64,000 nt of DNA from a virus: positions 32,001 through 96,000 of IMG/VR virus record IMGVR_UViG_3300045988_144418; one strand, 5' to 3'. Position numbers and translations under genes: made by a program. The notes beneath the pieces are model-generated. The model was not told where the DNA came from. It was given only the letters and a program-made list of their open reading frames with translations, and ran no database searches. Positions 6,329-57,072 of this stretch are shown in pieces. Position 1 is the first letter of the stretch. Each line of letters begins with the position of its first letter.

Positions 6329-8866
6329 ATGGCTTCATTTGTATTGGCGGAGTTTCCGCAGGTCGGGACAGGATTCACGGTAAAGACACAGTCAATTCCA
6401 TTGGCTGGACTTGTCTGTGTTATGCGTATGGCGAGAGCTAACTCCGGAAGCCTATTTAGATATTCGCTTGATGGTGGGCTGACATACACTGAATGGTTCA
6501 CTGTCAATGATGAATCTCTAAAGGCGTGTCTTGATATGAAGGATACGTTTGAGGTGGTGCTTGACTATGTAACCAAGGTTAAGGGTTCAGATCCTTCAGG
6601 AAGGATAGTTTTTAATAAGGACATTTTGAATATGCCGTCCAGCGGTGCTCCAGTACAGAATGGCATATCTTCCAGTGATGAGTGGGAGATAACCATTGGT
6701 GCTGAAAGTGAATCTACCGAGCCTATTGAAGATGGAATGCAGCCTGTTGATTCAGTGGTGTATGACAGAACAGGCTTTAAAAGTTTCTTTGATGTAAATG
6801 ATCTGGATGTTGTTGGGTGGGCTTGGAACGTTCTCGAAAAGATGTATATACATGGAGTTGTTCCCATCTATATTTCCAGAATTAATGCTGATGACTTTAA
6901 TTCCTTCTTTTTGGCCATTACCCATTTATTTGCGATAATAGTGGTCTATGGACGAAAGTATCGCAGAATAGAGGACAGTGAGGTTTTGATGAAGACGTTT
7001 CTGGAGCAGTGGGGTATTGTATATGAGACAATATTCACTCAAGAGGAACGAACCAATATTTTCAATGATTGGATAGGGGTCTTCAGCGAGAGGGGCACTT
7101 CGCAGATTGCTGACGAGGGTGTGCCCAATAGAGAGCTTCGCAGATTGCTTGGATATGGTAGGCCAAGTGAGTTTCTATTTGCCGTTCTGGAACCTTGTAA
7201 TGTTGGGTGGTGTGTCGGTTATTCCTCTCCTATGTGGTACGGCACGGAATCAGTGAATGCCGTTTCAAAAGGGTGGGACTATGGTTTGGATTGGCTTCGT
7301 GGTAGTGAGATGAGAGGTGTTGGTTCTATGCAGCACTATCCTGTTGTTGGCAGTATTTCCAGAATCAACACGACTGATGGGTATGTTTTTCAGACAGGTT
7401 CCGGACGATGCGGTCTATATTCCACTAACAAGTCCAAGGCTATTGAGGTTTATTCCGGAATGGACTATGAAGTGACTGTTTGGGTTAAGGCTTTATCAAG
7501 TGGTGCGCAGAATATTGACTTTGGTGTCAACTGTTTTGATGCCAATGGTGGAGTTTTGAAACAGGTCGGCCTTACCGATCTCCGAATCTCGGATAGCTTT
7601 TTTGATAGGGATGCTGATCATAGCCCTTGCCTTGTTCCTAACGTGTGGTATAGGTTACGGGGTGTTATTTATAACGTGCTTGCTGACAGGGATTTAAATT
7701 TAGCATTGAATTTTAAGGGTGGGAGACCTTTGAAGTTTGCCAACGGTACGGCATATCTGGCTCCATACATTATTCAAGATGGTCAGTCCAGTGTCACGAT
7801 GCAGATTGGCGGTGTGACGGTGAAGCCGTTGTATCTTTTTCCAAGACACCAGACATACAATGTATCTATTGGTGATTCAGTTCCTATGCTGATGGATGGA
7901 TATCCAGTGCAGGAACATTCGTGGAAGAACGGTGCTGGAAATGATATGGTTACGACCATATCTCCAGTGGGGCAGGGTTTTTTGGGGTCAAAGGATGTTG
8001 TAGCCATTTATTCGCAGATTAATTCCGCCAGAACCAAGAAGGATGTAGAGTTATTTATTAGGAATTATCTTCTCTCCTATAAGGAGGTCTTCTGGGGTGC
8101 ATGGCTTGATTATATTCGTCGTTCATCCTATTATCTTACATTTGCCGTGACAAAGGCAATTAATGGGGTTCCTCTTGAGGGTGTTGTTGTTACATTAAGT
8201 AATGGTTTGTCGGGAACAACGGATGAGGAGGGTTATATTCGATTTGAGGTTGAGACAGGCGTCACAGTGAACTGGGATGCTGTGATGAAGGGTGTTCGTG
8301 AGGTTGGCACAGTACAGATGACTGATGATAGGCTGGTGGAGGTGGCCTTGAATTTGCCTGTGAATGTGAATGTTTCCATTTATCAGGACGGTTGGGGTAC
8401 GGTTAAGGTTGGAGGTTCTCTTATTCCTGGATCCATTATGACGTTGACAGCTGTTGGTAAGAAAGGGTTCACGTTTAAGTCCTGGGAGGTGAACTATGAA
8501 GGGTTTACGGTTAATCCATTGAATTATCCTATTACAGGTTATGTGGATCCTATTGATGTGCTTGCCATTTTTGAGCGAAGTGGTGAGTTTGTGTTTGTTC
8601 CTCATAGGGTTGAGATTCCTTATGATGGGGGAACTGCTATTGTTCAGGCCTTATCATCCAAGAAGTGGGCTTTGGATGCTATTGATGCAGATTGGGTGTC
8701 TGTAAGTCCGAAGTCAGGAGGGGCAGGGGCGACTGAGATAAGAATTAATGTAAGTGACACTACCTATGACAAGTTCACTGTAAAGTCTGAGGGTTCTGAT
8801 GGCTATGAAGCCTTTACCTGTGAGACCGGAGGAAGTATTGCTGATGAATTGTTTGTAAAAAAATAA
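6329..8866 (+). CDS. tail fibre / receptor-binding protein, multi-domain, C-terminal BACON-like domain
   Basis: 845 aa in the tail module; CarboxypepD_reg-like segment (LTFAVTKAINGVPLEGVVVTLSNGLSGTTDEEGYIRF), InlB-B-repeat-like segment (VNVSIYQDGWGTVKVGG...GFTFKSWEV), C-terminal BACON-like segment (ADWVSVSPKSGGAGATEIRINV). Confidence 0.6.
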   Translation: MASFVLAEFPQVGTGFTVKTQSIPLAGLVCVMRMARANSGSLFRYSLDGGLTYTEWFTVNDESLKACLDMKDTFEVVLDYVTKVKGSDPSGRIVFNKDILNMPSSGAPVQNGISSSDEWEITIGAESESTEPIEDGMQPVDSVVYDRTGFKSFFDVNDLDVVGWAWNVLEKMYIHGVVPIYISRINADDFNSFFLAITHLFAIIVVYGRKYRRIEDSEVLMKTFLEQWGIVYETIFTQEERTNIFNDWIGVFSERGTSQIADEGVPNRELRRLLGYGRPSEFLFAVLEPCNVGWCVGYSSPMWYGTESVNAVSKGWDYGLDWLRGSEMRGVGSMQHYPVVGSISRINTTDGYVFQTGSGRCGLYSTNKSKAIEVYSGMDYEVTVWVKALSSGAQNIDFGVNCFDANGGVLKQVGLTDLRISDSFFDRDADHSPCLVPNVWYRLRGVIYNVLADRDLNLALNFKGGRPLKFANGTAYLAPYIIQDGQSSVTMQIGGVTVKPLYLFPRHQTYNVSIGDSVPMLMDGYPVQEHSWKNGAGNDMVTTISPVGQGFLGSKDVVAIYSQINSARTKKDVELFIRNYLLSYKEVFWGAWLDYIRRSSYYLTFAVTKAINGVPLEGVVVTLSNGLSGTTDEEGYIRFEVETGVTVNWDAVMKGVREVGTVQMTDDRLVEVALNLPVNVNVSIYQDGWGTVKVGGSLIPGSIMTLTAVGKKGFTFKSWEVNYEGFTVNPLNYPITGYVDPIDVLAIFERSGEFVFVPHRVEIPYDGGTAIVQALSSKKWALDAIDADWVSVSPKSGGAGATEIRINVSDTTYDKFTVKSEGSDGYEAFTCETGGSIADELFVKK

Positions 8867-8878
8867 ATAGATTGCGAT

Positions 8879-9763
8879 ATGAGCAGAATTAATATTCACA
8901 GAGGAACATTCTTGGAGAAAGAGGAGCTTGTGCGAATGTTGTCATTCCTGGAGGACAGAGATGATATATCAGCGGTTCTTTCCTCCTCTTTGACATACGG
9001 CATTGTTTCTCCAGGAGCAAAGGCAGGAACGGCATTTTCTATCTCTATTTCGGCGAAGGGTAATGCGGTCGACGTTGTAGGAGGATACATTATTACATCA
9101 GCTAATAAGGCCTTTAGATTACCTGATACGACAGAGTTTGCTATTCCAGAGGACAATCAGTTCTATTGGCTGAAGATTAGTCCAAGGGAACGGAACTATG
9201 AGGATGGAACTGTTCAAGTGGATGTGTCTGGAAATGTTTCCGGAAGTGTATCCTTTAATGGTGTTGTTCGTAGTCAGTCATCGGGTGTTCCTACGTGTAT
9301 TAAGTTTGTGAAGGATAATGGTTTCACACCGAAGAACAGTCAGGTTTATCAGGTTGTGGATATTGTGGATGATAATAATATCATTCTATCTGGCGGTCAG
9401 GCGTTTGTGAAGGAATCTGATCTCAAGGTTGTGGTGCTTGGTTCCATTCCGATGGGTAGGAGGTTTACTGATGAACAGTTGGAGGGTCTTTATACCTTTA
9501 CTGATGTAGAGATTAGTCTTGTTGAGGAAGTGGTTACTGGGGAAGCTCCACAGAAAGACAATGATGAATACTATATTGCCAGAATAAAGAACAACGGTGG
9601 AAATATTGTGTGGAGTGATGAACGTTCTGAATTTTGGAGTCTTGGAGGTGGTGGGGGTGTTCCAGTACCACAAGGATATGAAAGTTTTCAGGTTCTTACC
9701 GAAACTGGCTTGTATGAGAACTTTGAGGTTATTGACGGGATTTTGCAGGTGGTTGAACAGTAA
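8879..9763 (+). CDS. hypothetical structural protein (tail-fibre module)
   Basis: 294-aa ORF immediately after the fibre gene. Confidence 0.5.
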   Translation: MSRINIHRGTFLEKEELVRMLSFLEDRDDISAVLSSSLTYGIVSPGAKAGTAFSISISAKGNAVDVVGGYIITSANKAFRLPDTTEFAIPEDNQFYWLKISPRERNYEDGTVQVDVSGNVSGSVSFNGVVRSQSSGVPTCIKFVKDNGFTPKNSQVYQVVDIVDDNNIILSGGQAFVKESDLKVVVLGSIPMGRRFTDEQLEGLYTFTDVEISLVEEVVTGEAPQKDNDEYYIARIKNNGGNIVWSDERSEFWSLGGGGGVPVPQGYESFQVLTETGLYENFEVIDGILQVVEQ

Positions 9764-9775
9764 AGGAAGTGAATT

Positions 9776-10351
9776 ATGCAACTCTACTATACAACGACAA
9801 CAGGCTATAATGCTATTCAGACAAATCCAAGCAGGTCACTTGGAGGATTTAAGTCATCAACGCTTGTTATTAATGATGATTTTTCTAATCTTTTTGATGA
9901 CGTGTCCATTATGACGGTGCGTAATGCACGTCCGGAATATAGGGCTATCATTCTGAGGAATGAATTTATGAGTCAGGTTCGCAAGGTGAAAGTGTCGGTG
10001 AAGAATGCGGCAGATTCTATATGCCGATATAAGATGGCTGTGGAATATCTTGTTACGACTGACAAGTATGGTACAAAGAAAATGAGTAACGTTCAGTCGG
10101 CTCAGAGTAGGCCGTTTGCCGCACAGTTTGTGGATATGTCAGAGGGTGTGGTGCTTGATCTTGCAGAAACGCTTAATTCGGGTCAGGAAGTTGGTATCTG
10201 GATATGTCGTGAAATTGACAAAGTAAAGGCTAAAGAGCAATATGACAATGTCTGCAAGCCTGATCCGACAGATCCTACTGGAAGACGCTATGTGGCGGTG
10301 GAACGACTAACCGAGGAAGCCGTTGATATAGTGGTTGACTGGAAAGGTTAG
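9776..10351 (+). CDS. hypothetical protein
   Basis: 191-aa ORF, co-directional, short intergenic gaps. Confidence 0.55.
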   Translation: MQLYYTTTTGYNAIQTNPSRSLGGFKSSTLVINDDFSNLFDDVSIMTVRNARPEYRAIILRNEFMSQVRKVKVSVKNAADSICRYKMAVEYLVTTDKYGTKKMSNVQSAQSRPFAAQFVDMSEGVVLDLAETLNSGQEVGIWICREIDKVKAKEQYDNVCKPDPTDPTGRRYVAVERLTEEAVDIVVDWKG

Positions 10352-10367
10352 TCAGTCTGATTAAGTT

Positions 10368-10385
10368 AGAAATGATTTCGTTATG
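10368..10385 (+). promoter_or_regulatory. start-codon-abutting motif (AGAAATGATTTCGTTATG)
   Basis: Recurrent motif ending in the ATG. Confidence 0.35.
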
Positions 10386-10910
10386 TTGTATGACACAGAC
10401 ATTTATCAGAACATTGTTCTGACTCTATATGATTATCTTCAACGAAGTGTGAAGAAGATGCCACGTTCCATAAAGTGGGAAAAACCGTCTCATCGAAAGA
10501 CGGTTATTTCTTTTATAGAAAGTCTTCCTGATACAGCAGGGGTACAGTTTATTTGGGATTTTCTGGTTTTCCAGTTTTACATCTATAATTTTCAGGATCA
10601 AAAGTTGCGACCTCTTCCCGCTTGGTTTATGGGTAAGGAAGCGTGGGATCGGTGGAAATCTTATGATAGTGGTGCAAGGTATCACGCTTTTGAATGGGCA
10701 GGTGAACATCATATAGAAAATCCATTGAGAAATGTAAATTATAAAAATGTTGCACAGAGTGTGTTGGAAGCGGAAAGGCTGAGAATGTCTCGTATATCTG
10801 GGCCGAATTATTGTGGTTTGAAGTATGATAACCCCTATGATGGATCCAGTAGAATGTGCATGTCATGTCCATTTGTATGGGACTGTGATACTCTTTATGG
10901 AGGGAAATGA
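10383..10910 (+). CDS. hypothetical protein (Cys-rich C-terminus)
   Basis: 175-aa ORF; ATG abutted by AGAAATGATTTCGTTATG motif. Confidence 0.55.
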   Translation: MLYDTDIYQNIVLTLYDYLQRSVKKMPRSIKWEKPSHRKTVISFIESLPDTAGVQFIWDFLVFQFYIYNFQDQKLRPLPAWFMGKEAWDRWKSYDSGARYHAFEWAGEHHIENPLRNVNYKNVAQSVLEAERLRMSRISGPNYCGLKYDNPYDGSSRMCMSCPFVWDCDTLYGGK

Positions 10911-14475: not shown

Positions 14476-16011
14476 CAGACAAAGAAATTTGATGCGGTCT
14501 TGAGTCCGACATTTGTTGAAGAAATGCTTCGGCTCGCATATTCCAACAAGACATTCGCAGGGCTTGTGGTTGAGAATGTTAATGTAAGCAATTTTCCTCG
14601 TGAGCTTGGTGCGTGTAAGGCAATGCTCAAGGTACTGGCTGATAACTATCGTAATGGAGTATTTGCCACCTTGGGAATGGTTGAGATGGCCTTTCCGAAG
14701 AGTGATGAAGTAGCCAAGAAGATTTCTGAAATTAAGAATATGCCTGTTCCTCCCTATGATGGGATGGTTAAGCAGTTGGAAACATTCATTCGTCGGCAGA
14801 CATTTGTGGCTGTGCAGCATGAAGTGAGTGATATGTATAATGAGGGTAAGCCTGACGAAGCGATGGACTTGTTGGGGCGCAGGATGTCTGAAATACTGTC
14901 CTTTTCTTTGAAGCAGGGTGCAAAGGGGAAATTTTCCAGAATATATAGGGACTTTGTGCGTAACATAGCGATTGCACAGCAGAAGCAGGATGATGAGGTT
15001 AAGCGTCCAAAGATTCCTCTTGGCATCACGTCTTTGGATGATTTAACTGACGGTGGTGTTCCTCGGCAGGATACTGTTCTTTGGATTATGCGTTCCGGAG
15101 TGGGAAAATCCACGGCCTTGAAATATCATGCTTGGTACAATACGTCAATATCACATAATCACTGTCTTCACATCCAGCTGGAGGGTGGTGAGCAGGAGGC
15201 AGTGGTGAAGTTTGATCAGATGCTTGCACAGACAACCTATGCAAAGGTTTTGCGAGGTGATATTACGTCTGACACTCAGAAGCGTGTGCAGTCACTTATC
15301 AGAAGGGCTGTTACGGTGAATTCTGATATAGACGTGTATGCTTCCGAGGAGATGATGGAAATGACGATAGCTGACATTGTCAAGGTGGTGGAGGATTATT
15401 ATCTGGAGTATGGCTATTATCCTGATCTGATAACAGTTGATTCCATTGATCTTTTGCTTACAGGGCAGAACAGCAAGATAGACTATGATCCTAACTTTAT
15501 TAAGTATAGACTACAGAAGTGTGCACAGCGGTTAAAGGATCTTGCCACGAAGTATGATTGTGTCGTGATGACAGCCACTCAGACCTGTGATGTTCCTATG
15601 GAACTATGGAACGATCCATCTCGTGTCATAACACGTCAGCACACAGAGGGTGATAGAACACTGGTCAAGCCGTTTTCCTTTGTGTTTACAGGTAATGTAA
15701 CCATTGAGGAGGGTGCTCAGAACGTTATGCGTATATTCTGTGATAAGTTTCGAAATTATCGAAATAACGGAATAATTGTGAAGATACCGACCAACTATGA
15801 GAACGGCTTCTTTTACGACCTAAAACGTTCCGTAAAGGAGGAACAGGTACTTGATATGAACGCTATGCTGAAGATGGATGGCGCTCCTACACGCAGAAGA
15901 CGCACAAGTGATGGCAGACAGACGGAGACAAAGACGGTTGAGGTGTCAAGCGGTGTGTTCGTGACTCAGAATGTTGAGAAGAAGAAAGTGCCGCAGAAAA
16001 GGGGTGTCTGA
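14473..16011 (+). CDS. DnaB-like replicative DNA helicase
   Basis: 512 aa; GITSLDDLTDGGVPRQDTVLWIMRSGVGKST (DnaB C-terminal Walker A context), later LITVDSID (Walker B-like). Confidence 0.7.
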   Translation: MQTKKFDAVLSPTFVEEMLRLAYSNKTFAGLVVENVNVSNFPRELGACKAMLKVLADNYRNGVFATLGMVEMAFPKSDEVAKKISEIKNMPVPPYDGMVKQLETFIRRQTFVAVQHEVSDMYNEGKPDEAMDLLGRRMSEILSFSLKQGAKGKFSRIYRDFVRNIAIAQQKQDDEVKRPKIPLGITSLDDLTDGGVPRQDTVLWIMRSGVGKSTALKYHAWYNTSISHNHCLHIQLEGGEQEAVVKFDQMLAQTTYAKVLRGDITSDTQKRVQSLIRRAVTVNSDIDVYASEEMMEMTIADIVKVVEDYYLEYGYYPDLITVDSIDLLLTGQNSKIDYDPNFIKYRLQKCAQRLKDLATKYDCVVMTATQTCDVPMELWNDPSRVITRQHTEGDRTLVKPFSFVFTGNVTIEEGAQNVMRIFCDKFRNYRNNGIIVKIPTNYENGFFYDLKRSVKEEQVLDMNAMLKMDGAPTRRRRTSDGRQTETKTVEVSSGVFVTQNVEKKKVPQKRGV

Positions 16012-18007: not shown

Positions 18008-18039
18008 CTTTGGATATCTAAGATAAGTGACTATATTTG
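18008..18039 (+). promoter_or_regulatory. early promoter cassette P1
   Basis: ctTTGGATATCTAAG ... TATATTTG; -33 TTG to -7 box spacing matches the other copies. Confidence 0.6.
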
Positions 18040-33938: not shown

Positions 33939-34562
33939 ATGATGATGAATACGACACAGATTGTAAGTTCGGCGATTGATACAGGCAAGGCGATTGGCGA
34001 CGTTGGTATGATGGCCGTTACGGCTGGATTTTTTCTTGTTCTTTCCGGGATTTTGATGGTGGTGTGCTTTAAGTGGTTCATTCGCCTGATTAATAGCATG
34101 CTTCAGGATCAGAAACGAACGATGGAAGAACTCTTGAAGGAGACACGAGATCAAAATTCAAAACTTGCGGAACTATCAGAATGTCTTGCTCCTGGAAATC
34201 AGTTAAAGACAAAAGTGATTTCAAATGCTTTCTTTGATTTAGGTGTCGAAAAGGTTTGCCGTGTTATCAAAAAGGTTAGGGCAGAAAATCACATTGTTGA
34301 CAGGGAAACAACAACGGCAAAGGTTCATAAATTGCTGAAGAATTTGCATGATGACAGGAATAGTAAACTGGATTCATTTACTTATTTAGGCCGACCTCTT
34401 TCAAGTTACACTGATGAAAAATGGGTTGTTAAGGTTGCGGAAGTCGTTCTTAGCGAAATTTATAATGAAAATGGAGCTAATGATGAAAGAGCCTGTACAA
34501 ATGTTACAGCCGTGTATGATCAAATAAAGTTGGATTTTTATAGTAATATGATGCAGAGATAG
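33939..34562 (+). CDS. hypothetical membrane-anchored protein
   Basis: 207 aa; N-terminal hydrophobic helix MMAVTAGFFLVLSGILMVVCF. Confidence 0.55.
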   Translation: MMMNTTQIVSSAIDTGKAIGDVGMMAVTAGFFLVLSGILMVVCFKWFIRLINSMLQDQKRTMEELLKETRDQNSKLAELSECLAPGNQLKTKVISNAFFDLGVEKVCRVIKKVRAENHIVDRETTTAKVHKLLKNLHDDRNSKLDSFTYLGRPLSSYTDEKWVVKVAEVVLSEIYNENGANDERACTNVTAVYDQIKLDFYSNMMQR

Positions 34563-34564
34563 TT

Positions 34565-34672
34565 ATGGGTCTTTTTGAATTTATAGCTAAATCACGTTCT
34601 GGAGTTTATAAGAATACTTCAGAAAATCGTAGACTCCATCGTGTGGGGCAAAGATATGGTGAGCAGAGGCAA
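34565..34672 (+). repeat. shared N-terminal leader, copy 1 (MGLFEFIAKSRSGVYKNTSENRRLHRVGQRYGEQRQ)
   Basis: About 26 of 36 residues identical to copy 2, with many synonymous nucleotide differences. Confidence 0.8.
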
Positions 34673-35698
34673 CTGGCGGATGAGGGTGAACTGATTCCAG
34701 GAATGCCTAATTTCACCAAGGTGAATCTGAAGAAGTATTTGTCTGACAAGATAAAGAAACAGGTGGATGACTATATTGTTAATGTCTCAACCACTCCAGG
34801 ATGGAATAATCCTGAGCAGGTCTCCCTTATGGTAAAAGTTGTGCAGAAGCACTTCAATGAAGCTTTTGATGATATGACCAAGGCGCAGAGAGCCTACTGG
34901 GTGGAATTGGCAAAGCGGCTTTTGGGGCGAATGGAATCTCTTAATGCAGGTGGCGACAAGGAGGAATCCGTTAAGCCTGAAGAGACACCAAAGCCTACAT
35001 TGAAGGAACGTGTTGACAATTTTGAACAGAAGGAAAAAGCGAAGAATATCTTTGAACAGGCAGCACAGAAGTACGGAATTGAACATGGTAAGCCGATGTC
35101 CATTGATAGAGCTGATCGTAAGCACGCCAACCCGAAATTTCTGACGCTTGTAGATGGAAGTTTTCGTCCATACACTTCAAACTGTCAGACCTGTGTGGTT
35201 GCCTATGAACTTCGTAAGAGGGGTTATGACGTTGAAGCAAAGGGTGTTGGTGTTAAGCCGAAGTCCTATGTAAATAATTTTCAAAGAGAAATGGCCTATG
35301 ATAGTACCTTTGCTTTTGCTGATAAGGATATAGATCTTATTAGGCCGAACTTTACAGGTGAGATTAAGTTCAATACGGATAAGGGTCGTAGGCAGTTTCG
35401 AATGAAAATTTTTGACGCCATAAAAGAGCAGGGAACTTATTTCTTATCTTTTAAGAACAAGGGGCGTCAGAGTGGTCATATTGTGGTGCTTGAACACACG
35501 ACTAATAATTTTTTGTTGATAGATCCACAGTCCAATAGAAGAATTGATCTTAAATCTGACGAATTCATGCAGTATCTTGCTGGAGTGGATGTTACACATA
35601 AAAATAATAGACTATTTAGGGTGAATGACTTGACATTCAAACCTGAGGTATTTTCTGTGATGGAAAAGGCAAATACAGAACCAGATATATATGATTAA
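34565..35698 (+). CDS. leader-bearing payload protein 1: C-terminal papain-like (Cys/His) polymorphic-toxin-like domain
   Basis: N-terminal 36 aa are paralogous to the 35985 gene; C-terminal YTSNCQTCVVAYELRKRGYDV ... RQSGHIVVLEH suggests a Cys-His catalytic pair (inference). Confidence 0.45.
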   Translation: MGLFEFIAKSRSGVYKNTSENRRLHRVGQRYGEQRQLADEGELIPGMPNFTKVNLKKYLSDKIKKQVDDYIVNVSTTPGWNNPEQVSLMVKVVQKHFNEAFDDMTKAQRAYWVELAKRLLGRMESLNAGGDKEESVKPEETPKPTLKERVDNFEQKEKAKNIFEQAAQKYGIEHGKPMSIDRADRKHANPKFLTLVDGSFRPYTSNCQTCVVAYELRKRGYDVEAKGVGVKPKSYVNNFQREMAYDSTFAFADKDIDLIRPNFTGEIKFNTDKGRRQFRMKIFDAIKEQGTYFLSFKNKGRQSGHIVVLEHTTNNFLLIDPQSNRRIDLKSDEFMQYLAGVDVTHKNNRLFRVNDLTFKPEVFSVMEKANTEPDIYD

Positions 35699-35927
35699 TG
35701 AAAAGGATATTTTGAAAATCTGCGAAGCGGCAGGTTGGAAAGGCGGCGAACTGATTTACGGTGGGTTTGCTGACGGCAAGTATTATGTCTCCTATGGAGC
35801 TGAGAGTGACGGTGCAGAACTTGCGTGTGTGGGCGCTCCTATAATTCTTGTCGTGGAGAACGGCAGATGTAGGACAGCTACTGACAAGGAATGGGTTTAT
35901 TTTTATGAAAATTTTGTGAAAGATTAA
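35691..35927 (+). CDS. small ORF coupled to payload 1 (immunity/antidote-like by position)
   Basis: 78 aa; its ATG overlaps the last codons of the upstream gene. Confidence 0.45.
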   Translation: MINEKDILKICEAAGWKGGELIYGGFADGKYYVSYGAESDGAELACVGAPIILVVENGRCRTATDKEWVYFYENFVKD

Positions 35928-35936
35928 GGATTAATC

Positions 35937-35967
35937 CTTGGATATTTCAGAATAATGATTATATTTG
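35937..35967 (+). promoter_or_regulatory. early promoter cassette P3
   Basis: CTTGGATATTTCAGAA ... TATATTTG; preceded by the palindrome GGATTAATCC. Confidence 0.65.
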
Positions 35968-35984
35968 CGTAGTAAAATTCAATT

Positions 35985-36092
35985 ATGGGTTTATTTGAAT
36001 ACATAGTTAAGTCCAGATCAGGTGTCTATAAGGATAATTCTGAAAATAGGCGGCTTCACAGGGCTGGACTGCAATATGGTCAGAAAAAGCAG
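35985..36092 (+). repeat. shared N-terminal leader, copy 2 (MGLFEYIVKSRSGVYKDNSENRRLHRAGLQYGQKKQ)
   Basis: Paralogous to 34565-34672 at the protein level. Confidence 0.8.
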
Positions 36093-36713
36093 CAGGAAAG
36101 CGTTCCTGATGTAAACAAGAAGGATCTTGAACTTGCGGAAGCAAAGGTTAAGAAAATGCTTGTCGTGAAGCAGAACTTTGATGATGTTTCACAGGCGGTG
36201 TGTCAGGAGGTTGGCTGTATTGTTTCTCCTACTAATATTAAAAAGCCCGTAAGAATTGCTCAGAAAATGGCTTCTGATGGTTCTACTATTGATGAGATTA
36301 AGGATGTTATGCGTAACACCTTTGTTGTTAATAGTGACGATGATGTTGGCAAGGTTATAGAAGCCATATCCAAGCATTATAAAGTTGTTAGGGTAAAGTA
36401 TCAAACGCCCGACAGGTTCGCTGGATATAGCGGCAATATTGTCAATGTGGAGCTTCCTAATGATGAAATTGGTGAAATGCAGGTGAATACGCCACAAATG
36501 ATATTTGGCAAGGAAGTTGAACGTGATGCCAGAATGATTTTGGGTGATGGCCTATGGGAACGATTGAAAGCCAATGCAGGAAATCTTATTCCAGGACTTG
36601 GTCATAGGATGTATGAGGTGCTTCGGGATGATTCCATTGACGATGAAAGGCTTGATATTGTCGAACGCAATAGTAGAATTTATTATGATAGAATTAGAAA
36701 GATTTCGCTATGA
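35985..36713 (+). CDS. leader-bearing payload protein 2: RelA/SpoT-homologue nucleotidyl/pyrophosphotransferase (small alarmone synthetase or toxSAS-like)
   Basis: Synthetase-fold pattern by eye: IKKPVRIAQKM, IKDVMRNTFVV, AGYSGNIVNVEL, IGEMQVNTPQM (compare GY.s.H and E.Q.RT..Q); driven by promoter cassette P3. Confidence 0.55.
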   Translation: MGLFEYIVKSRSGVYKDNSENRRLHRAGLQYGQKKQQESVPDVNKKDLELAEAKVKKMLVVKQNFDDVSQAVCQEVGCIVSPTNIKKPVRIAQKMASDGSTIDEIKDVMRNTFVVNSDDDVGKVIEAISKHYKVVRVKYQTPDRFAGYSGNIVNVELPNDEIGEMQVNTPQMIFGKEVERDARMILGDGLWERLKANAGNLIPGLGHRMYEVLRDDSIDDERLDIVERNSRIYYDRIRKISL

Positions 36714-36958
36714 GAACTGTAACTAACAAGGAACTGGGGGAGTTGCTCCGCTCCAATGAAATGGTCTATCTTCTGGACGACACTGATGAAATCGCATGGG
36801 GATTTCTCGGTGATGGAAAGAACCGTAGAAGAGTGGTGAGCAAGGCAAAGGGCAGGGAACCTGTTGAGCACAATCCCAAGCAGCAGAACTCCAATAGTAT
36901 GATTCGTGCCTATCTGAATAAGGATGTGATGACCAAGGAGGAGTTTGAAAACTATTAG
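36710..36958 (+). CDS. small ORF coupled to the RelA/SpoT-like gene (antitoxin/immunity-like by position)
   Basis: 82 aa; ATGA stop/start overlap. Confidence 0.45.
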   Translation: MRTVTNKELGELLRSNEMVYLLDDTDEIAWGFLGDGKNRRRVVSKAKGREPVEHNPKQQNSNSMIRAYLNKDVMTKEEFENY

Positions 36959-36965
36959 AATTTTC

Positions 36966-36996
36966 CTTGGAAATTCAAGAACAATGACTATATTTG
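36966..36996 (+). promoter_or_regulatory. early promoter cassette P4
   Basis: CTTGGAAATTCAAGAA ... TATATTTG. Confidence 0.65.
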
Positions 36997-37009
36997 CACT
37001 GTGAAAATT

Positions 37010-37027
37010 AAAAATGATTTTGTTATG
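37010..37027 (+). promoter_or_regulatory. start-codon-abutting motif (AAAAATGATTTTGTTATG)
   Basis: Recurrent motif ending in the ATG; here it lies downstream of cassette P4. Confidence 0.35.
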
Positions 37028-37477
37028 ATTAAGATTGTCACTAAATCTCAGGACAGATTTCGTCAGGCCGTTGAAATAGCTGTCCAGGCACATCAGGGTC
37101 AGGTTGACCGAAATGGTGTTCCGTATATCTGTCATTCTATTGCCGTTGCTCAAAAGTGCTCATTCTATACAGCCAAGTGTGTGGCTATGCTTCACGATGT
37201 GCTGGAGGACACGGAGGTTACGGCACAGGATCTATTTAAGATGGGTGTTGAGGAATATATCATTGAATGTGTGGAAAAATTGACGCACGATCCAAAGGTT
37301 CCATATCTGGATTATATTCAAAGCATAATTGACACCAGAGATGCTAATATCATATCGGTTAAGTACGCTGATCTATGTGATAATCTCGATCCTACGAGGG
37401 GTGGAATGAATGAAAAGAAAGTGCCTCTGTATCGCAAGGCCAGAAGAATGATGGAGGAAGCATTATGTTTCATATAG
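37025..37477 (+). CDS. small alarmone hydrolase (SpoT/RelA-type HD domain)
   Basis: AVEIAVQAHQGQVDRNGVPYICHSIAVAQ ... AMLHDVLEDTEVT is the (p)ppGpp-hydrolase HD signature; has its own promoter cassette P4. Confidence 0.75.
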   Translation: MIKIVTKSQDRFRQAVEIAVQAHQGQVDRNGVPYICHSIAVAQKCSFYTAKCVAMLHDVLEDTEVTAQDLFKMGVEEYIIECVEKLTHDPKVPYLDYIQSIIDTRDANIISVKYADLCDNLDPTRGGMNEKKVPLYRKARRMMEEALCFI

Positions 37478-39399
37478 AACTAAGAAATGAAATCCTCCGT
37501 TTGAATTCTCTGTATAGGCAGGGCAAGCCGGAGGTCAGTGATGTTGAGTACGATTCACTTGTGGAGCAACTGAGGGCTATATCTCCTGATGATGATTTCT
37601 TCAAGTCTGGTGTTGCTGAAAAGGCAACGGATAGAATGCAGAAACTCCCTCTTCCTATGTTTTCTCTGGAGAAAATAAAGACGTTTAAGGAGTTTTTGAC
37701 GTGGGTTGATAGGATGGTTATGGCTGGGTGTAAAAATCTCGTAATAACGCCTAAATATGACGGAATAAGTCTTCTTATCAGTGAACTGTCACAGGCTGCC
37801 TGGACAAGGGGTGACGGTGTGCAGGGTCAGCGGAGTGACGCACACTTTTCACGAATGAAGAATGGTGAGGTTGAACAGCCTGTGTTTGAATACATATGGG
37901 GTGAAGCTATCTGTTCCAAAAAGGATTTTGAATCCGTTAAGGGTGAGTACAAGAATGCTCGCAATATGGTTGCAGGTTTGTTCAATTCTCCTATGGGGGC
38001 TAATACAGAACAGATAGGGGCTGTCACCTTTGTAAGGTATGGCATTGATTCTGATGAAAATAAATCCGTTCAACTGGATTATCTTAATGGTCGTTACCAA
38101 TATACTACAACATACAGACTGATACAGATTGAAAACATTCTTATGTATAATGAGAATGATGTGCTGGATATGTTGGATAGGTTTTATAGAGAATGGAAGC
38201 TGGAGTATCAAATAGACGGTCTGGTGATTGAAGCTAATGAAAACAGTGTTCGAAAGAAGCTGGGTCGTAAGCCGAATGGAAATCCTGACTATGCTATTGC
38301 ATTTAAGAGGGAGGAGTGGTTGCAGTTCTATACAACGACCGTGGAAAAGGTTGAATGGAATGTTAGCAAGGATGGCTGTCTGTGTCCTGTGGTATGCGTA
38401 AAGCCTGTTGAAATGGAGAGTGCTACTGTTTCCAAGGTGACAGGGTATAATGCTAAATATATTCTTGACAATCATATTGCAGGTGGTTCTACAATAGACA
38501 TCATTCGTAGTGGCGACGTCATTCCAAAGCACATTAGAACACTTGGTTATTCTCCAGAAATATGTTCGAAGGAATTTCCTACTGTCTGTCCATGCTGTGG
38601 TAAGCCTGTTCAATGGGATGCTACGCATACTGAGCTTGTATGTGTGAATGAGAACTGTAAACAGCAGGTCATTTCTCGTATGGTGTATTTCTTCAGGACG
38701 ATGGGCTGCGAGGGTTTTGATGAACCTATTGTACGTCGCCTGTATGACGCTGGAATGGATAGTGTTCAGCTTGTTGTGGCAAGTAGGTCAATGGCATTTA
38801 TGCACATACTTGGGGAGAACAAGGGGCTGGCTGTGTATAATGAGATTCAGAATAGGGTGCTTAATACAAAGAACCCTGTCGCAAGACTTATGACTGCATA
38901 TAATGTTTTTGGAGGCGTTCTTGCCGAAAAGACGGCTCAAAGCATTATAGATGGCAGTGAAGCAGTTCAATATCTGTTGGATATCCATGAACCTATCAGG
39001 GATAATGATATTCTGGCAGATATTCTGGCAGTTCTTCGTGCGGAGCTTTGTTCTATTCCTGGTGTGGGTGCTGTCACGGCTGATACATTCATCACAGGTA
39101 TGAATAAGTTTTTGGATATGAGATGCCTGTATCTTTATTACATTTGCACTCCTAAGAAAATTTTGGCTGACAACTGTATGTATGTCTGCATGACAGGTTT
39201 TAGGGATAAGGAACTGGAGAATGAGCTTATAAAACAGGGACATGAGGTTCTGAATGGCGTTACGGCCAAGTGTACAGTTCTTGTGGTGGCTGATTTGAAT
39301 TCAACAAGCAGTAAGATGCAAAAGGCTCAGAAGATGGGAATTCGTATTGTGGACAGAAAGACATTTGAAAATGAAATATACGGCAAAGAAAATAAGTAA
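37465..39399 (+). CDS. ligA: NAD-dependent DNA ligase
   Basis: Adenylation KxDG (TPKYDGISL), DGLVIEA, Cys4 zinc finger CPCCGK...CVNENC, C-terminal BRCT-like MTGFRDKELE...VLVVAD. Confidence 0.9.
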   Translation: MFHIELRNEILRLNSLYRQGKPEVSDVEYDSLVEQLRAISPDDDFFKSGVAEKATDRMQKLPLPMFSLEKIKTFKEFLTWVDRMVMAGCKNLVITPKYDGISLLISELSQAAWTRGDGVQGQRSDAHFSRMKNGEVEQPVFEYIWGEAICSKKDFESVKGEYKNARNMVAGLFNSPMGANTEQIGAVTFVRYGIDSDENKSVQLDYLNGRYQYTTTYRLIQIENILMYNENDVLDMLDRFYREWKLEYQIDGLVIEANENSVRKKLGRKPNGNPDYAIAFKREEWLQFYTTTVEKVEWNVSKDGCLCPVVCVKPVEMESATVSKVTGYNAKYILDNHIAGGSTIDIIRSGDVIPKHIRTLGYSPEICSKEFPTVCPCCGKPVQWDATHTELVCVNENCKQQVISRMVYFFRTMGCEGFDEPIVRRLYDAGMDSVQLVVASRSMAFMHILGENKGLAVYNEIQNRVLNTKNPVARLMTAYNVFGGVLAEKTAQSIIDGSEAVQYLLDIHEPIRDNDILADILAVLRAELCSIPGVGAVTADTFITGMNKFLDMRCLYLYYICTPKKILADNCMYVCMTGFRDKELENELIKQGHEVLNGVTAKCTVLVVADLNSTSSKMQKAQKMGIRIVDRKTFENEIYGKENK

Positions 39400-43814: not shown

Positions 43815-45431
43815 ATGAACACAAGAATTCTTTTTGGAAAGGACGCAAGAGCAGCTCTGCTCGCTGGAGCGGAGGAGCTCTATTCAGCGGTGGCGTCCAC
43901 ACTCGGACCGAGAGGTCACACGGTTGCGATTGATAAGGGGTACGGCATACCTCATATCACCAAGGATGGTGTGACGGTGGCTCGTGCCTATGACATTGAT
44001 GATCCGATGAAGCGAATGGGCGCAACACTCGTTAAGATGGTGGCTGCAAAGACCTGTGATCAAGCAGGTGACGGAACCACCACGGCCACGATATTGTCCT
44101 ACGCTATGATGAAGCGTGGTGTGTGTGGCTCGGTGAACATACAGAATCCGCATGAGTATCGCAGAGGTATGGAAGACGCACTGGATGAGGCTGTCAGCTA
44201 TATTAAGTCCAGTGCTGTAAAGATAGAGCCTGACGAGATTGACAAAATCAGACAGGTGGCCAAGGTGTCAGCCAACGGTGATGATATGGTGGCTGATCTT
44301 ATTACATCGGCGATAGAGAGTGTCGGCAATGACGGCATCATTACCGTTGAGGAGAGCACCAAGGGAGATGAATCCACGGTGGAGGTTACAACTGGCTTTC
44401 AGTGGAGTAAGGGGATTATAAATCCATATTTTGTTACTGACAGTGAGCGAATGGAGTGTGTTCTGGATAAGCCGTATGTTCTTATCTGGGGTCAAAACAT
44501 CAATTATGTTCAGGAGATTCTTGCTGTGGTGCAGACTGTATATACAGCCAAGAGATCCCTTTTGATTGTAGCTCCAAACGCTTCCAATGACGTGATAAAG
44601 TTTCTTGTCACAAACGTTCAGCAGAATAACGGTCTAAAGGCATGTTTTGTAAAGGCTCCAGGATTCGGTCAGATGCAGAAAGACTTGATGCAGGATTTGG
44701 CTGTAAAGGTGGGCGGCAAAATTGTTGGTGAGGAATACGGTAATGCCATGGAGTCATTTGGAACTGACTGGCTTGGTGAGGTGGACAAGGCCACAATCTC
44801 AGCCAATAGAACCGTTCTCGTGGGCGGTGCTGGAAAGTCTGTGGATATAGATGCTCGAATAGAATTCATCAGGAATGAAATGGCTGAAAACTCCAACACC
44901 TATGATAGAGAAAAGTATAGAGAGCGCATCAGTCGTCTTACAGGCGGTGCGGCTGTCATCTATGTAGGTGCGGACAGTGAAGTGGAGATGAATGAGCGCA
45001 AGGATAGAGTGGATGACGCCATTGCGGCCACCAGAGCCGCTCTTGATGAGGGTTATGTTCCGGGAGGGGGGACAATTCAGTATAAGATAGCCAAGATTCT
45101 GGAAAGGTCACTGGATGACAACCCAAAATGGAGCACCGATTATTTGGAGGGCTACCGTACTGTGATTGATGCCCTGAAGAAACACTTTCACATTCTATGT
45201 GAGAATGCAGGAGTGGAGCCTATTCGGATTGAGGTTATGATGGACTTGAAGTCCACGGCATTACAGCAGGGCTACAATCCATTTACTAACAGTATAGAGG
45301 ATATGTATAAGGCTGGCGTGATAGATCCAGCCAAGGTCACACGAACATCACTGGAGAATGCTGTGTCGGTGGCCGTTCAGTTCCTCGGTATGTCGTGCGC
45401 TATGTCAGGTGAGGAGGCTAAGAAAGTATGA
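43815..45431 (+). CDS. groEL: GroEL-type chaperonin (Cpn60)
   Basis: AVASTLGPRGHTVAIDKGYG.PHITKDGVTVA, DQAGDGTTTATIL, VGADSEVEMNERKDRVDDA, GGG motif; 538 aa. Confidence 0.9.
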   Translation: MNTRILFGKDARAALLAGAEELYSAVASTLGPRGHTVAIDKGYGIPHITKDGVTVARAYDIDDPMKRMGATLVKMVAAKTCDQAGDGTTTATILSYAMMKRGVCGSVNIQNPHEYRRGMEDALDEAVSYIKSSAVKIEPDEIDKIRQVAKVSANGDDMVADLITSAIESVGNDGIITVEESTKGDESTVEVTTGFQWSKGIINPYFVTDSERMECVLDKPYVLIWGQNINYVQEILAVVQTVYTAKRSLLIVAPNASNDVIKFLVTNVQQNNGLKACFVKAPGFGQMQKDLMQDLAVKVGGKIVGEEYGNAMESFGTDWLGEVDKATISANRTVLVGGAGKSVDIDARIEFIRNEMAENSNTYDREKYRERISRLTGGAAVIYVGADSEVEMNERKDRVDDAIAATRAALDEGYVPGGGTIQYKIAKILERSLDDNPKWSTDYLEGYRTVIDALKKHFHILCENAGVEPIRIEVMMDLKSTALQQGYNPFTNSIEDMYKAGVIDPAKVTRTSLENAVSVAVQFLGMSCAMSGEEAKKV

Positions 45432-57042: not shown

Positions 57043-57072
57043 CCTGGGAAATCCAGGACTCCCTTATATTTG
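57043..57072 (+). promoter_or_regulatory. early promoter cassette P9 (variant dyad)
   Basis: CCTGGGAAATCCAGGA ... TATATTTG, then the leader GTAATCATTAATTCA; both arms are changed yet still complementary (CCTGG/CCAGG). Confidence 0.6.

Follow-up and report, generated by a model that had tools for sequence, protein, structure and literature searches.

A leader-bearing Apk-type toxin-immunity module in a probably virulent Bacteroidales phage, and toxin-less counterparts of its immunity genes in bacterial chromosomes

Why would a phage couple the translation of a toxin to that of the toxin's own neutralizer, and in which cell would such a toxin act? This question is raised by a 64,000-nucleotide (nt) stretch of phage DNA (positions 32,001 to 96,000 of IMG/VR record IMGVR_UViG_3300045988_144418; hereafter the window, in which all coordinates are counted unless another locus is named), where three co-directional open reading frames (ORFs) on the plus strand, ORFs A, B, and C, lie next to each other (Table 1). 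By homology in sequence and predicted structure, the three genes form an Apk-type toxin-immunity module. The Apk/Tis1/Aph1 trio as such is already known; what is new here is a candidate delivery leader at the N terminus of the toxin, the behavior of toxin and immunity genes as a cassette in a probably virulent phage, and matching orphan-immunity islands in bacteria. The best reading of these data, to which we assign a probability of roughly 55%, is that the toxin is packaged in the phage head and injected into the next cell, with an immunity protein and a hydrolase to control it. The purpose of phage toxin-immunity modules is an acknowledged open question, and for the related toxins that carry a MuF domain, it is stated to be unknown whether they travel in virions and are injected (PMC10083569).

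The original prediction, made from the letters of the window, had seen a RelA/SpoT-like synthetase, a small coupled ORF, and a stand-alone alarmone hydrolase in a layout like that of toxic small alarmone synthetase (toxSAS) systems. The peptides that it had picked out in ORF A (IKKPVRIAQKM, DVMRNTFVV, AGYSGNIVNVEL, and GEMQVNTPQM) and ORF C (HQGQVDRNGVPYICHSIAVA and MLHDVLEDTE) were all recovered from the sequence, as were the ORF bounds and the ATGA overlap that sets the ATG of ORF B inside the stop codon of ORF A. ORF A matches the Pfam RelA_SpoT profile (PF04607) at 25.9 bits (E 1.3e-5), just below the curated 27-bit cut-off, and amino acids (aa) 58-239 align with residues 256-435 of the toxin Tas1 (PDB 6ox6_A; phmmer E 9.3e-17), which is the sole RelA/SpoT homolog (RSH) protein that a sequence search with ORF A retrieves from the PDB. 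An AlphaFold (AF2) model built from seven sequences reaches a predicted local distance difference test score (pLDDT) of ~90 across aa 45-242 and falls below 50 across aa 1-40. Its top PDB match in Foldseek is Tas1 as well (E 4.6e-11, template modeling [TM] score 0.82, root mean square deviation 2.7 Å), followed well behind by an exported Streptomyces alarmone synthetase, Rel, CapRel, and small alarmone synthetase (SAS) enzymes with TM scores of 0.64 or less; 38 PDB structures match at E<=1e-3 and, among the matches listed, all are RSH enzymes. The alignment with Tas1 keeps the syn1-like IKKPVRIAQKM, the syn2-like KDVMRNT, and the syn4-like GEMQVNTPQM segments, and the syn3 segment reads GYSGNI in ORF A, GYSGHI in protein P0012, and GYSGVN in Tas1. 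On the combined evidence of sequence and model, ORF A has the RSH synthetase fold, as had been proposed, and its family is that of the Tas1/Apk (p)ppApp-synthetase toxins, closer to Tas1 than to other RSH enzymes; it is predicted to convert ATP/ADP into (p)ppApp. We rejected the classical toxSAS toxin-antitoxin (TA) system as a family label, CapRel and the Rel/SAS enzymes being much weaker structural matches than Tas1.

The company that this toxin domain keeps elsewhere bears on how it might be delivered. Its 691 representative relatives at E<=1e-3 carry it mainly at the C terminus of proteins of 500-1400 aa, and the majority of the best relatives in a sample of 10 proteins are fused to head-morphogenesis/MuF domains (phrog_7625, 115, and 1657), with 35-43% identity between the toxin domain of ORF A and those of the MuF-fused relatives. 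PHROGs profiles detected MuF in such proteins, whereas Pfam, run on ten long Apk relatives, did not at E<=1e-4. In ORF A itself, neither Pfam nor PHROGs finds a MuF or PAAR domain; all that lies ahead of the toxin domain is a leader of 36 aa and a helical linker.

ORF B, which directly follows the Apk gene, belongs to no sequence-level family in Pfam or PHROGs, and since a sequence search of the PDB gave nothing meaningful, its relation to Tis1 rests on the predicted fold. Its AF2 model (pLDDT 90.3) ranks Tis1 (6ox6_B) first among 350,542 PDB chains in Foldseek (probability 1.00, TM 0.63/0.67, E 0.097), with the runner-up at a TM score of 0.34. Tis1 is the immunity protein of Tas1 and was cocrystallized with it (PDB 6ox6). 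In its model, ORF B is a small protein with the Tis1 fold that is predicted to block the active site of the ORF A toxin, and the earlier view of the coupled 82-aa ORF as a small cognate neutralizer gains from both the ATGA coupling and this fold match, its function being a predicted one. A distant lineage (L001-L003), whose toxin is 39-41% identical to ORF A, has the order HD hydrolase, leader-Apk, 76-aa ORF, with overlapping genes. The 76-aa ORF after the 39%-identical leader-Apk of L001 is an end-to-end homolog of ORF B (26% identity, E 4e-8), and this divergence alongside the respective toxins is the pattern that would be expected of a co-diverging toxin-immunity pair.

ORF C had been read as a SpoT-type HD hydrolase, and its sequence supports a stand-alone alarmone hydrolase whose best match is Aph1 (7smg_A; phmmer E 2.7e-20, with the next match at 6e-10). 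The two proteins are nearly the same length (150 aa, counted from the first in-frame ATG, and 149 aa), and the H..H..HD..ED..D residues are conserved in their alignment; phrog_990 is matched at E 3e-37. The Pfam HD_4 profile is matched at 21 bits, with the cut-off at 27.2, so both profiles proposed at the outset for checking the synthetase and the hydrolase found their targets, yet short of the curated thresholds. Aph1 is the (p)ppApp-specific hydrolase of a Bacteroides caccae phage (PMC10083569). ORF C is accordingly described here as an Aph1-like, compact, single-domain HD protein, predicted to return (p)ppApp to ATP/ADP.

The leader of ORF A is what sets this toxin apart from its relatives. 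This leader, with the motif KSRSGVYxDxxENRRLHRVGQxYG, is ~36 aa long. Residues 1-36 of ORF A share 72% identity with the N terminus of the protein encoded at 34565..35698 (E 6e-15), in line with the earlier remark that the two genes have a common leader; the 64-kb window holds no third copy. Because the two copies differ synonymously at 15 of 26 conserved codons, the leader is conserved at the protein level rather than copied by recent gene conversion. In the neighboring gene, the leader precedes a glutamine-deamidase domain (Pfam Gln_amidase at 34.3 bits, with the cut-off at 24.1), and this protein also carries a conserved 'VNLKKYLS...FNxxFDxMxKAxRA' module; the 78-aa ORF that overlaps its end has no family match in Pfam or PHROGs. 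Among relatives, the leader heads Apk, Gln_amidase, Zeta_toxin, and unrecognized C-terminal cargos. It is found in only four further short proteins among 148 toxin-domain representatives, the MuF fusions being without it. A profile search with the leader alignment in a set of 5.8 billion proteins returned only short fragments and no new cargo types, and a literature search for the motif strings found no relevant paper. Matches to the motif also occur in cultured Bacteroides thetaiotaomicron phages (SJC03 and DAC16/19/20/22); in SJC03, gene SJC03_69 (L086 8938..9783), annotated as hypothetical only, encodes 281 aa in which the motif (GIYKNNPLNRKLGRVGQRYG) is followed by a Zeta-like P-loop kinase. 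These cultured phages offer a tractable experimental handle on packaging.

The leader-Zeta protein of sister phages (L004 6001..7254; also L074 and L077) has a C-terminal region of ~100 aa in the same ORF, and this region recurs as a stand-alone 99-aa gene in a bacterial immunity array (L084 6529..6828; 82% identical). Because it stands alone there, the leader-Zeta protein may be a toxin-immunity fusion, perhaps split by proteolysis. One variant of this protein (P0017) lacks the kinase domain and retains the C-terminal region.

Where else the leader occurs points to what it may do. Our scan of IMG/VR yielded 62 leader loci, and tblastn synteny revealed, at 35 of them, the fixed order 546-aa-like protein, leader protein, ~225-aa protein, portal. 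The leader protein beside the portal is highly variable in length and sometimes ends in a Gln-deamidase domain. In L070, the genes after the portal encode a MuF-like minor head protein (14652..15599, a separate protein without a toxin), NUDIX, the maturation protease of the head, and the major capsid protein. An IMG/VR contig with 92.5% nt identity to the window over 8.5 kb (L073) has three motif copies at its head locus (L071). The first gene of the head operon (L070 8672..10312; L071 ~8051..10516) encodes the ~546-aa protein, which holds two internal copies (GTYTDTPENRKLNRVGQAY and HGRYADTAKNRRLHRVGQEYG), so that the motif is not confined to N termini. PHROGs searches of the neighbors of leader genes (3-kb flanks) were mostly uninformative. 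Judged by gene order, the leader belongs to the head module and singles out proteins whose genes lie directly ahead of those for the portal, the MuF-like protein, the protease, and the major capsid protein.

The promoter-like elements of the locus provide a second link to the head operon. The 64-kb window contains exactly two copies of a 34-nt element, TCCTTGGAWATTYMAGAAYAATGAYTATATTTGC, one at 35935 and one at 36964 (none expected in shuffled sequences). They adjoin the 5' side of ORF A and of ORF C, so each of the two does have a promoter-like cassette of its own, as had been noted. The same class is found at 18011, 26932, and 63222 and, in weaker form, at 57045 and 33906. Five copies (18011, 26932, 35939, 36968, and 63222) share the consensus TGGAWATTYMAGAAnAnTGACTAYMTTTG, with a start codon ~20-35 nt on; being longer than the plain Bacteroidetes -33/-7 promoter, this consensus suggests a phage-specific recognition feature. 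Scans for sigma-70 promoters and intrinsic terminators gave no more matches than shuffled sequences. The class also stands directly before the head-morphogenesis operon in L070, L071, and L072, and the description of these promoters as early is not supported, the cassette not being early-specific.

These observations allow a different account, in which the toxin is never packaged. It would be an intracellular takeover enzyme, expressed from its own promoter soon after entry, that causes a transient ATP/purine collapse before ORF B and ORF C titrate it, with the leader serving in binding to a host target, in stability control, or as homology for cassette recombination. The genes around the locus (RecA, SbcCD, ligase, and helicases) are those of replication and recombination, each unit has its Bacteroidetes-type promoter-like element, and the leader is without a confident fold, all of which would suit such an enzyme. 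However, the ATGA coupling would neutralize the toxin while it is being made, the leader motif clusters in proteins whose genes neighbor the portal gene, and the promoter class is common to the head operon. We consider this account unlikely, and the bacterial loci described next add to its difficulties.

Homologs of ORF B fall into 76 clusters, 85-98% identical in nearly all cases, and many of the clusters lie on contigs far larger than the phage. We fetched 16 chromosomal loci (among L078-L094), two of which are metagenome-assembled genomes (an uncultured Bacteroidales bacterium and a Muribaculaceae bacterium). The 16 loci span at least four chromosomal contexts: (i) beside thioredoxin-reductase/BamD/rpoZ/recN-like genes; (ii) beside fatty-acid-synthesis/LolA/Fe-ADH genes; (iii) beside YccF/peptidase M28 genes; and (iv) between topA/ispD-like and mreB-like genes. 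All 16 encode an ORF B homolog (89-95% identical) with a homolog of the 78-aa ORF (46-82% identical) beside it, and in all 16 an Aph-like HD protein, whole or in fragments, overlaps the ORF B homolog; a homolog of the C-terminal ~100 aa of the Zeta protein is present in 10. By contrast with this set of immunity genes, no Apk, Gln-deamidase, or Zeta kinase domain was found in any of the 16. When six of the loci (L078-L083) were compared with the window by BLASTN, identity at the nt level (91.5-93%) was limited to ORF B, with a weaker stretch over the 78-aa ORF.

Fifteen of these 16 islands start with a 293-aa, GIY-YIG-containing protein identified as UzuA (PADLOC E 1.7e-80), which we take to be a gene of the Uzume anti-phage system. 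The island order (e.g., L084 2576..6828) is UzuA-like, two to four small proteins, Aph-like HD, Tis1-like, 78-aa-like, and Zeta-C-like. The small proteins after UzuA are unrecognized, some with signal-peptide or lipoprotein-like starts; in some islands, decay has left only fragments of 64-93 aa from the HD gene, with the Tis1-like gene intact; and T5orf172 and Schlafen/AlbA_2-HATPase genes lie beside the island in one context. PADLOC has no model for ORFs A, B, and C or for the Gln-deamidase pair, and our search for orphan immunity against phage or MuF toxins found no precedent in the literature library that it covered. Toxin-less arrays next to a defense gene, in chromosomes of the host order, are an ecological sign of intoxication from outside, and they are hard to explain by a takeover enzyme that is always coexpressed with its own immunity.

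On the phage side, the Gln-deamidase/78-aa pair and the hydrolase gene enclose a slot that is found in three states among otherwise collinear sister phages: filled with leader-Apk and the 82-aa ORF (window and L073), filled with a leader-Zeta protein of 417-419 aa (L004, L074, and L077), or empty (L075 and L076). The sequence of the empty site combines the 35935 and 36964 promoter cassettes in a clean hybrid, which fits gain or loss of the Apk/ORF B cassette by recombination between the flanking promoter repeats. An ORF C homolog is present in all collinear relatives, whatever fills the slot. The hydrolase had been thought to limit or reverse the action of this particular toxin, and its presence in sister phages with a Zeta-filled or empty slot indicates that it is not tied to the toxin gene.

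That sister phages differ only in the slot and all keep the hydrolase also suggests a contest between phages, in which the toxin, packaged or expressed, would disable cells occupied by a rival or exclude superinfecting relatives, and the hydrolase would confer cross-immunity against the Apk toxins of relatives circulating alongside; in keeping with this, hydrolase-type immunity is described as interchangeable between Apk toxins and Tis1/IapK-type immunity as specific (PMC12226406). A phage-against-phage weapon and shield leaves unexplained why bacteria, not phages, gather the immunity genes beside UzuA, and it overlaps with injection of a packaged toxin rather than excluding it; as a separate explanation, we judge it quite improbable. 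We give still less credence to the idea that the hydrolase is chiefly an anti-defense enzyme, directed against the (p)ppApp/(p)ppGpp of host toxSAS or of the stringent response, with the Apk cassette as an unrelated selfish TA moron. ORF C is indeed conserved independently of Apk and has its own promoter-like element, and toxSAS that make (pp)pApp are known TA/defense modules (PMC7229694; PMC11782079). Yet both the overlap of the hydrolase gene with the leader-Apk gene in one operon in L001-L003 and the overlap of the bacterial HD gene with the Tis1-like gene point to a functional link between the hydrolase and Apk.

We return to the packaged and injected toxin and set out how it would work. 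The producing cell would make toxin and immunity protein together through the ATGA coupling, and because the two are made together, the toxin should be inactive in that cell, held by ORF B with the help of ORF C. The leader would dock the toxin into the assembling head, as it may do for the leader proteins of the head module. At the next infection, the toxin would enter with the DNA a cell that is free of immunity, drain its ATP, and block purine synthesis, bringing down host metabolism and energy-dependent defenses; it might also poison a cell that had destroyed the phage DNA. Freshly made ORF B and ORF C would then turn the toxin off and regenerate ATP for replication, and bacteria would respond by keeping orphan immunity genes in a defense island. 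That the toxin acts outside the cell that produces it is suggested on two grounds: coupling it to a neutralizer would be pointless if it acted only where it is made, and bacteria keep the neutralizers without the toxins. For packaging in particular, we count the MuF fusions among the sampled best relatives without the leader, in which a different head-associated delivery domain would serve the same toxin, and the promoter class shared by the toxin cassettes and the head operon.

Several observations weigh against this reading. The toxin cassettes sit in the replication/recombination module and not in the head module, and the leader by itself is predicted to be disordered (pLDDT <50 in the AF2 model). 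Virion packaging, leader processing, and ejection are deduced from sequence, and our search for packaged or injected phage toxins with immunity found no precedent in the literature library that it covered. ORF A only partly matches the GxN signature reported for the syn3 segment of Apk (PMC12226406), which makes its putative substrate less certain. The hydrolase, kept by sister phages without Apk, may have another or a broader role. Finally, UzuA is 87-91% identical across the island loci, so that the islands look like the spread of one UzuA-led mobile element and thus like few independent acquisitions.

A wider generalization is that a short N-terminal peptide replaces MuF and loads the capsids of probably virulent Bacteroidales phages with interchangeable toxins, among them (p)ppApp synthetase, Zeta kinase, and glutamine deamidase, for injection along with the DNA, and that gut bacteria answer with orphan immunity in a UzuA-led island, as an anti-phage counterpart of the acquired interbacterial defense (AID) arrays. 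We offer this only tentatively, as an idea that may well prove wrong in one part or another. If it were true, the polymorphic-toxin concept would extend to probably virulent phages, and the islands would be a new class of anti-phage protection; the locus would in any event offer a second, independent architecture for the putative delivery of the same toxin.

The features of the locus are collected in Table 1. At ORF C, a GTG at 37001 is an unlikely start, as it lies only four bases past the promoter-like -7 box. The four-codon upstream ORF (uORF) ahead of the ORF C start is kept in an alignment of sister phages L074-L077, and the 3' end of ORF C overlaps the start of a NAD-ligase gene (37465..39399). 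All relatives, the distant L001 lineage included, encode directly ahead of the toxin cassettes a 207-aa protein for which a membrane segment is predicted (33939..34562; phrog_19698, E 6e-75), and the replication region also encodes a phage GroEL-like chaperonin (43815..45431; phrog_5725, E 1e-141).

Table 1. Positions of the module, its parts, and adjoining elements in the 64,000-nt window
Feature	Position (nt)	Strand	Description
ORF A	35985..36713	+	242 aa; leader plus Tas1/Apk-type RelA-SpoT-fold toxin domain; predicted (p)ppApp synthetase
ORF A N-terminal leader	35985..36092 (aa 1-36)	+	core motif KSRSGVYKDNSENRRLHRAGLQYG
ORF A toxin domain	36156..36701 (aa ~58-239)	+	Tas1-like region
ORF B	36710..36958	+	82 aa; Tis1/IapK-like predicted structural immunity protein
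ORF C	37025..37477	+	150 aa; Aph1-like stand-alone HD protein, predicted (p)ppApp hydrolase
Promoter-like cassette before ORF A	35935..35968	+	TTGG...N...TATATTTGC, Bacteroidetes-type -33/-7 shape; left repeat bounding the Apk/immunity cassette
Second promoter-like cassette, before ORF C	36964..36997	+	right repeat bounding the Apk/immunity cassette
Four-codon uORF	37014..37028	+	ATG ATT TTG TTA TGA (MILL-stop); its TGA overlaps the ORF C ATG
Sister toxin gene	34565..35698	+	377 aa; same leader plus papain-fold glutamine-deamidase toxin domain
78-aa ORF	35691..35927	+	putative immunity protein for the Gln-deamidase toxin; overlaps the 3' end of the toxin gene

The phage that carries the locus is ~100 kb long, has baseplate genes, and is probably a virulent phage of Bacteroidales; the ORFs that were scanned include no integrase. 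A near-identity search of a 5.5-kb region against 50,697 GenBank phages gave no match, and the terminase large subunit (TerL) has only distant relatives, at 34% identity, in the B. thetaiotaomicron phages DAC19/20/22 and SJC03. In relatives (L001 11806.. and L002 9209..9961), the UvrD-like helicase carries Hint/homing-endonuclease (intein-like) domains, and the ligase gene is followed by an inserted GIY-YIG/NUMOD3 endonuclease gene; such mobile elements differ from one phage to the next where the genomes are otherwise collinear.

How, then, does the module compare with known systems? The original prediction had called the presence of both activities unusual, whereas the same trio in the same order—toxin, Tis1-like immunity protein, Aph1—has been published for the MuF-Apk2 modules of temperate phages of B. 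caccae, Streptococcus pneumoniae, Mannheimia haemolytica, and Pasteurella multocida, in which both immunity proteins were shown to be protective (PMC10083569; PMC12226406). Like MuF-Apk2/Tis1 (IapK)/Aph1, the present locus combines these three protein families on a phage. Unlike it, ORF A is without MuF and has in its place the ~36-aa leader that MuF toxins lack; the genes belong to the replication module, a promoter-like element of its own precedes each unit, and the toxin/immunity pair is swappable. The closest solved structures for ORFs A and B are those of Tas1-Tis1 (Apk1), a type VI secretion system (T6SS) effector-immunity pair of Pseudomonas aeruginosa PA14 (6ox6). That toxin is bacterial and not viral, carries an N-terminal PAAR domain, is delivered by the T6SS, and is without an associated hydrolase. 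With toxSAS (FaRel with its small alarmone hydrolase antitoxin, CapRel, and FaRel2), the locus has in common an RSH-fold toxin countered by a small antitoxin or by an alarmone hydrolase, and FaRel makes (pp)pApp (PMC7229694; PMC11782079). Unlike the present module, toxSAS act within the cell that encodes them and have no delivery leader, and CapRel is a far weaker structural match to ORF A (E 4e-5, TM 0.41) than Tas1 (E 5e-11, TM 0.82).

The bacterial islands resemble the AID and recombinase-associated AID (rAID-1) arrays of gut Bacteroidales, which likewise hold toxin-less immunity genes on mobile chromosomal islands; rAID-1 clusters have at their 5' end a tyrosine recombinase resembling XerD, after which come low-GC immunity genes in the same direction (Ross et al., bioRxiv 10.1101/471110). 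Unlike those arrays, the islands described here have cognate toxins that are phage encoded and not T6SS effectors, and UzuA comes first in place of a co-directional XerD-like recombinase. We examined rAID-1 membership and set it aside, a tyrosine recombinase being found near L084 only, where it is convergent.

As for delivery, ORF A has neither of the N-terminal domains, PAAR and MuF, by which the Apk1 and Apk2 subfamilies are defined. MuF polymorphic toxins, as Jamet et al. are said to have defined them in 2017, have an N-terminal MuF domain and are encoded by a head-module gene of a temperate phage; ORF A is without MuF and its gene lies in the replication module. In phage T4, internal proteins IPI-III and Alt are packed in the head and injected with the DNA by means of a short N-terminal capsid-targeting peptide on otherwise unrelated cargos. 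The leader described here is similar in being a short N-terminal peptide on unrelated cargos; it has no sequence relation to the T4 peptides, and unlike them, its packaging and its cleavage by the head protease are matters of deduction. Polymorphic toxins in general, reportedly characterized by Zhang et al. in 2012, combine a conserved N-terminal module with variable C-terminal toxins, adjacent immunity genes, and cassette exchange, and all four traits have their counterpart in this locus: the shared leader, its several cargos, the small downstream ORFs, and the exchange of the slot between sister phages.

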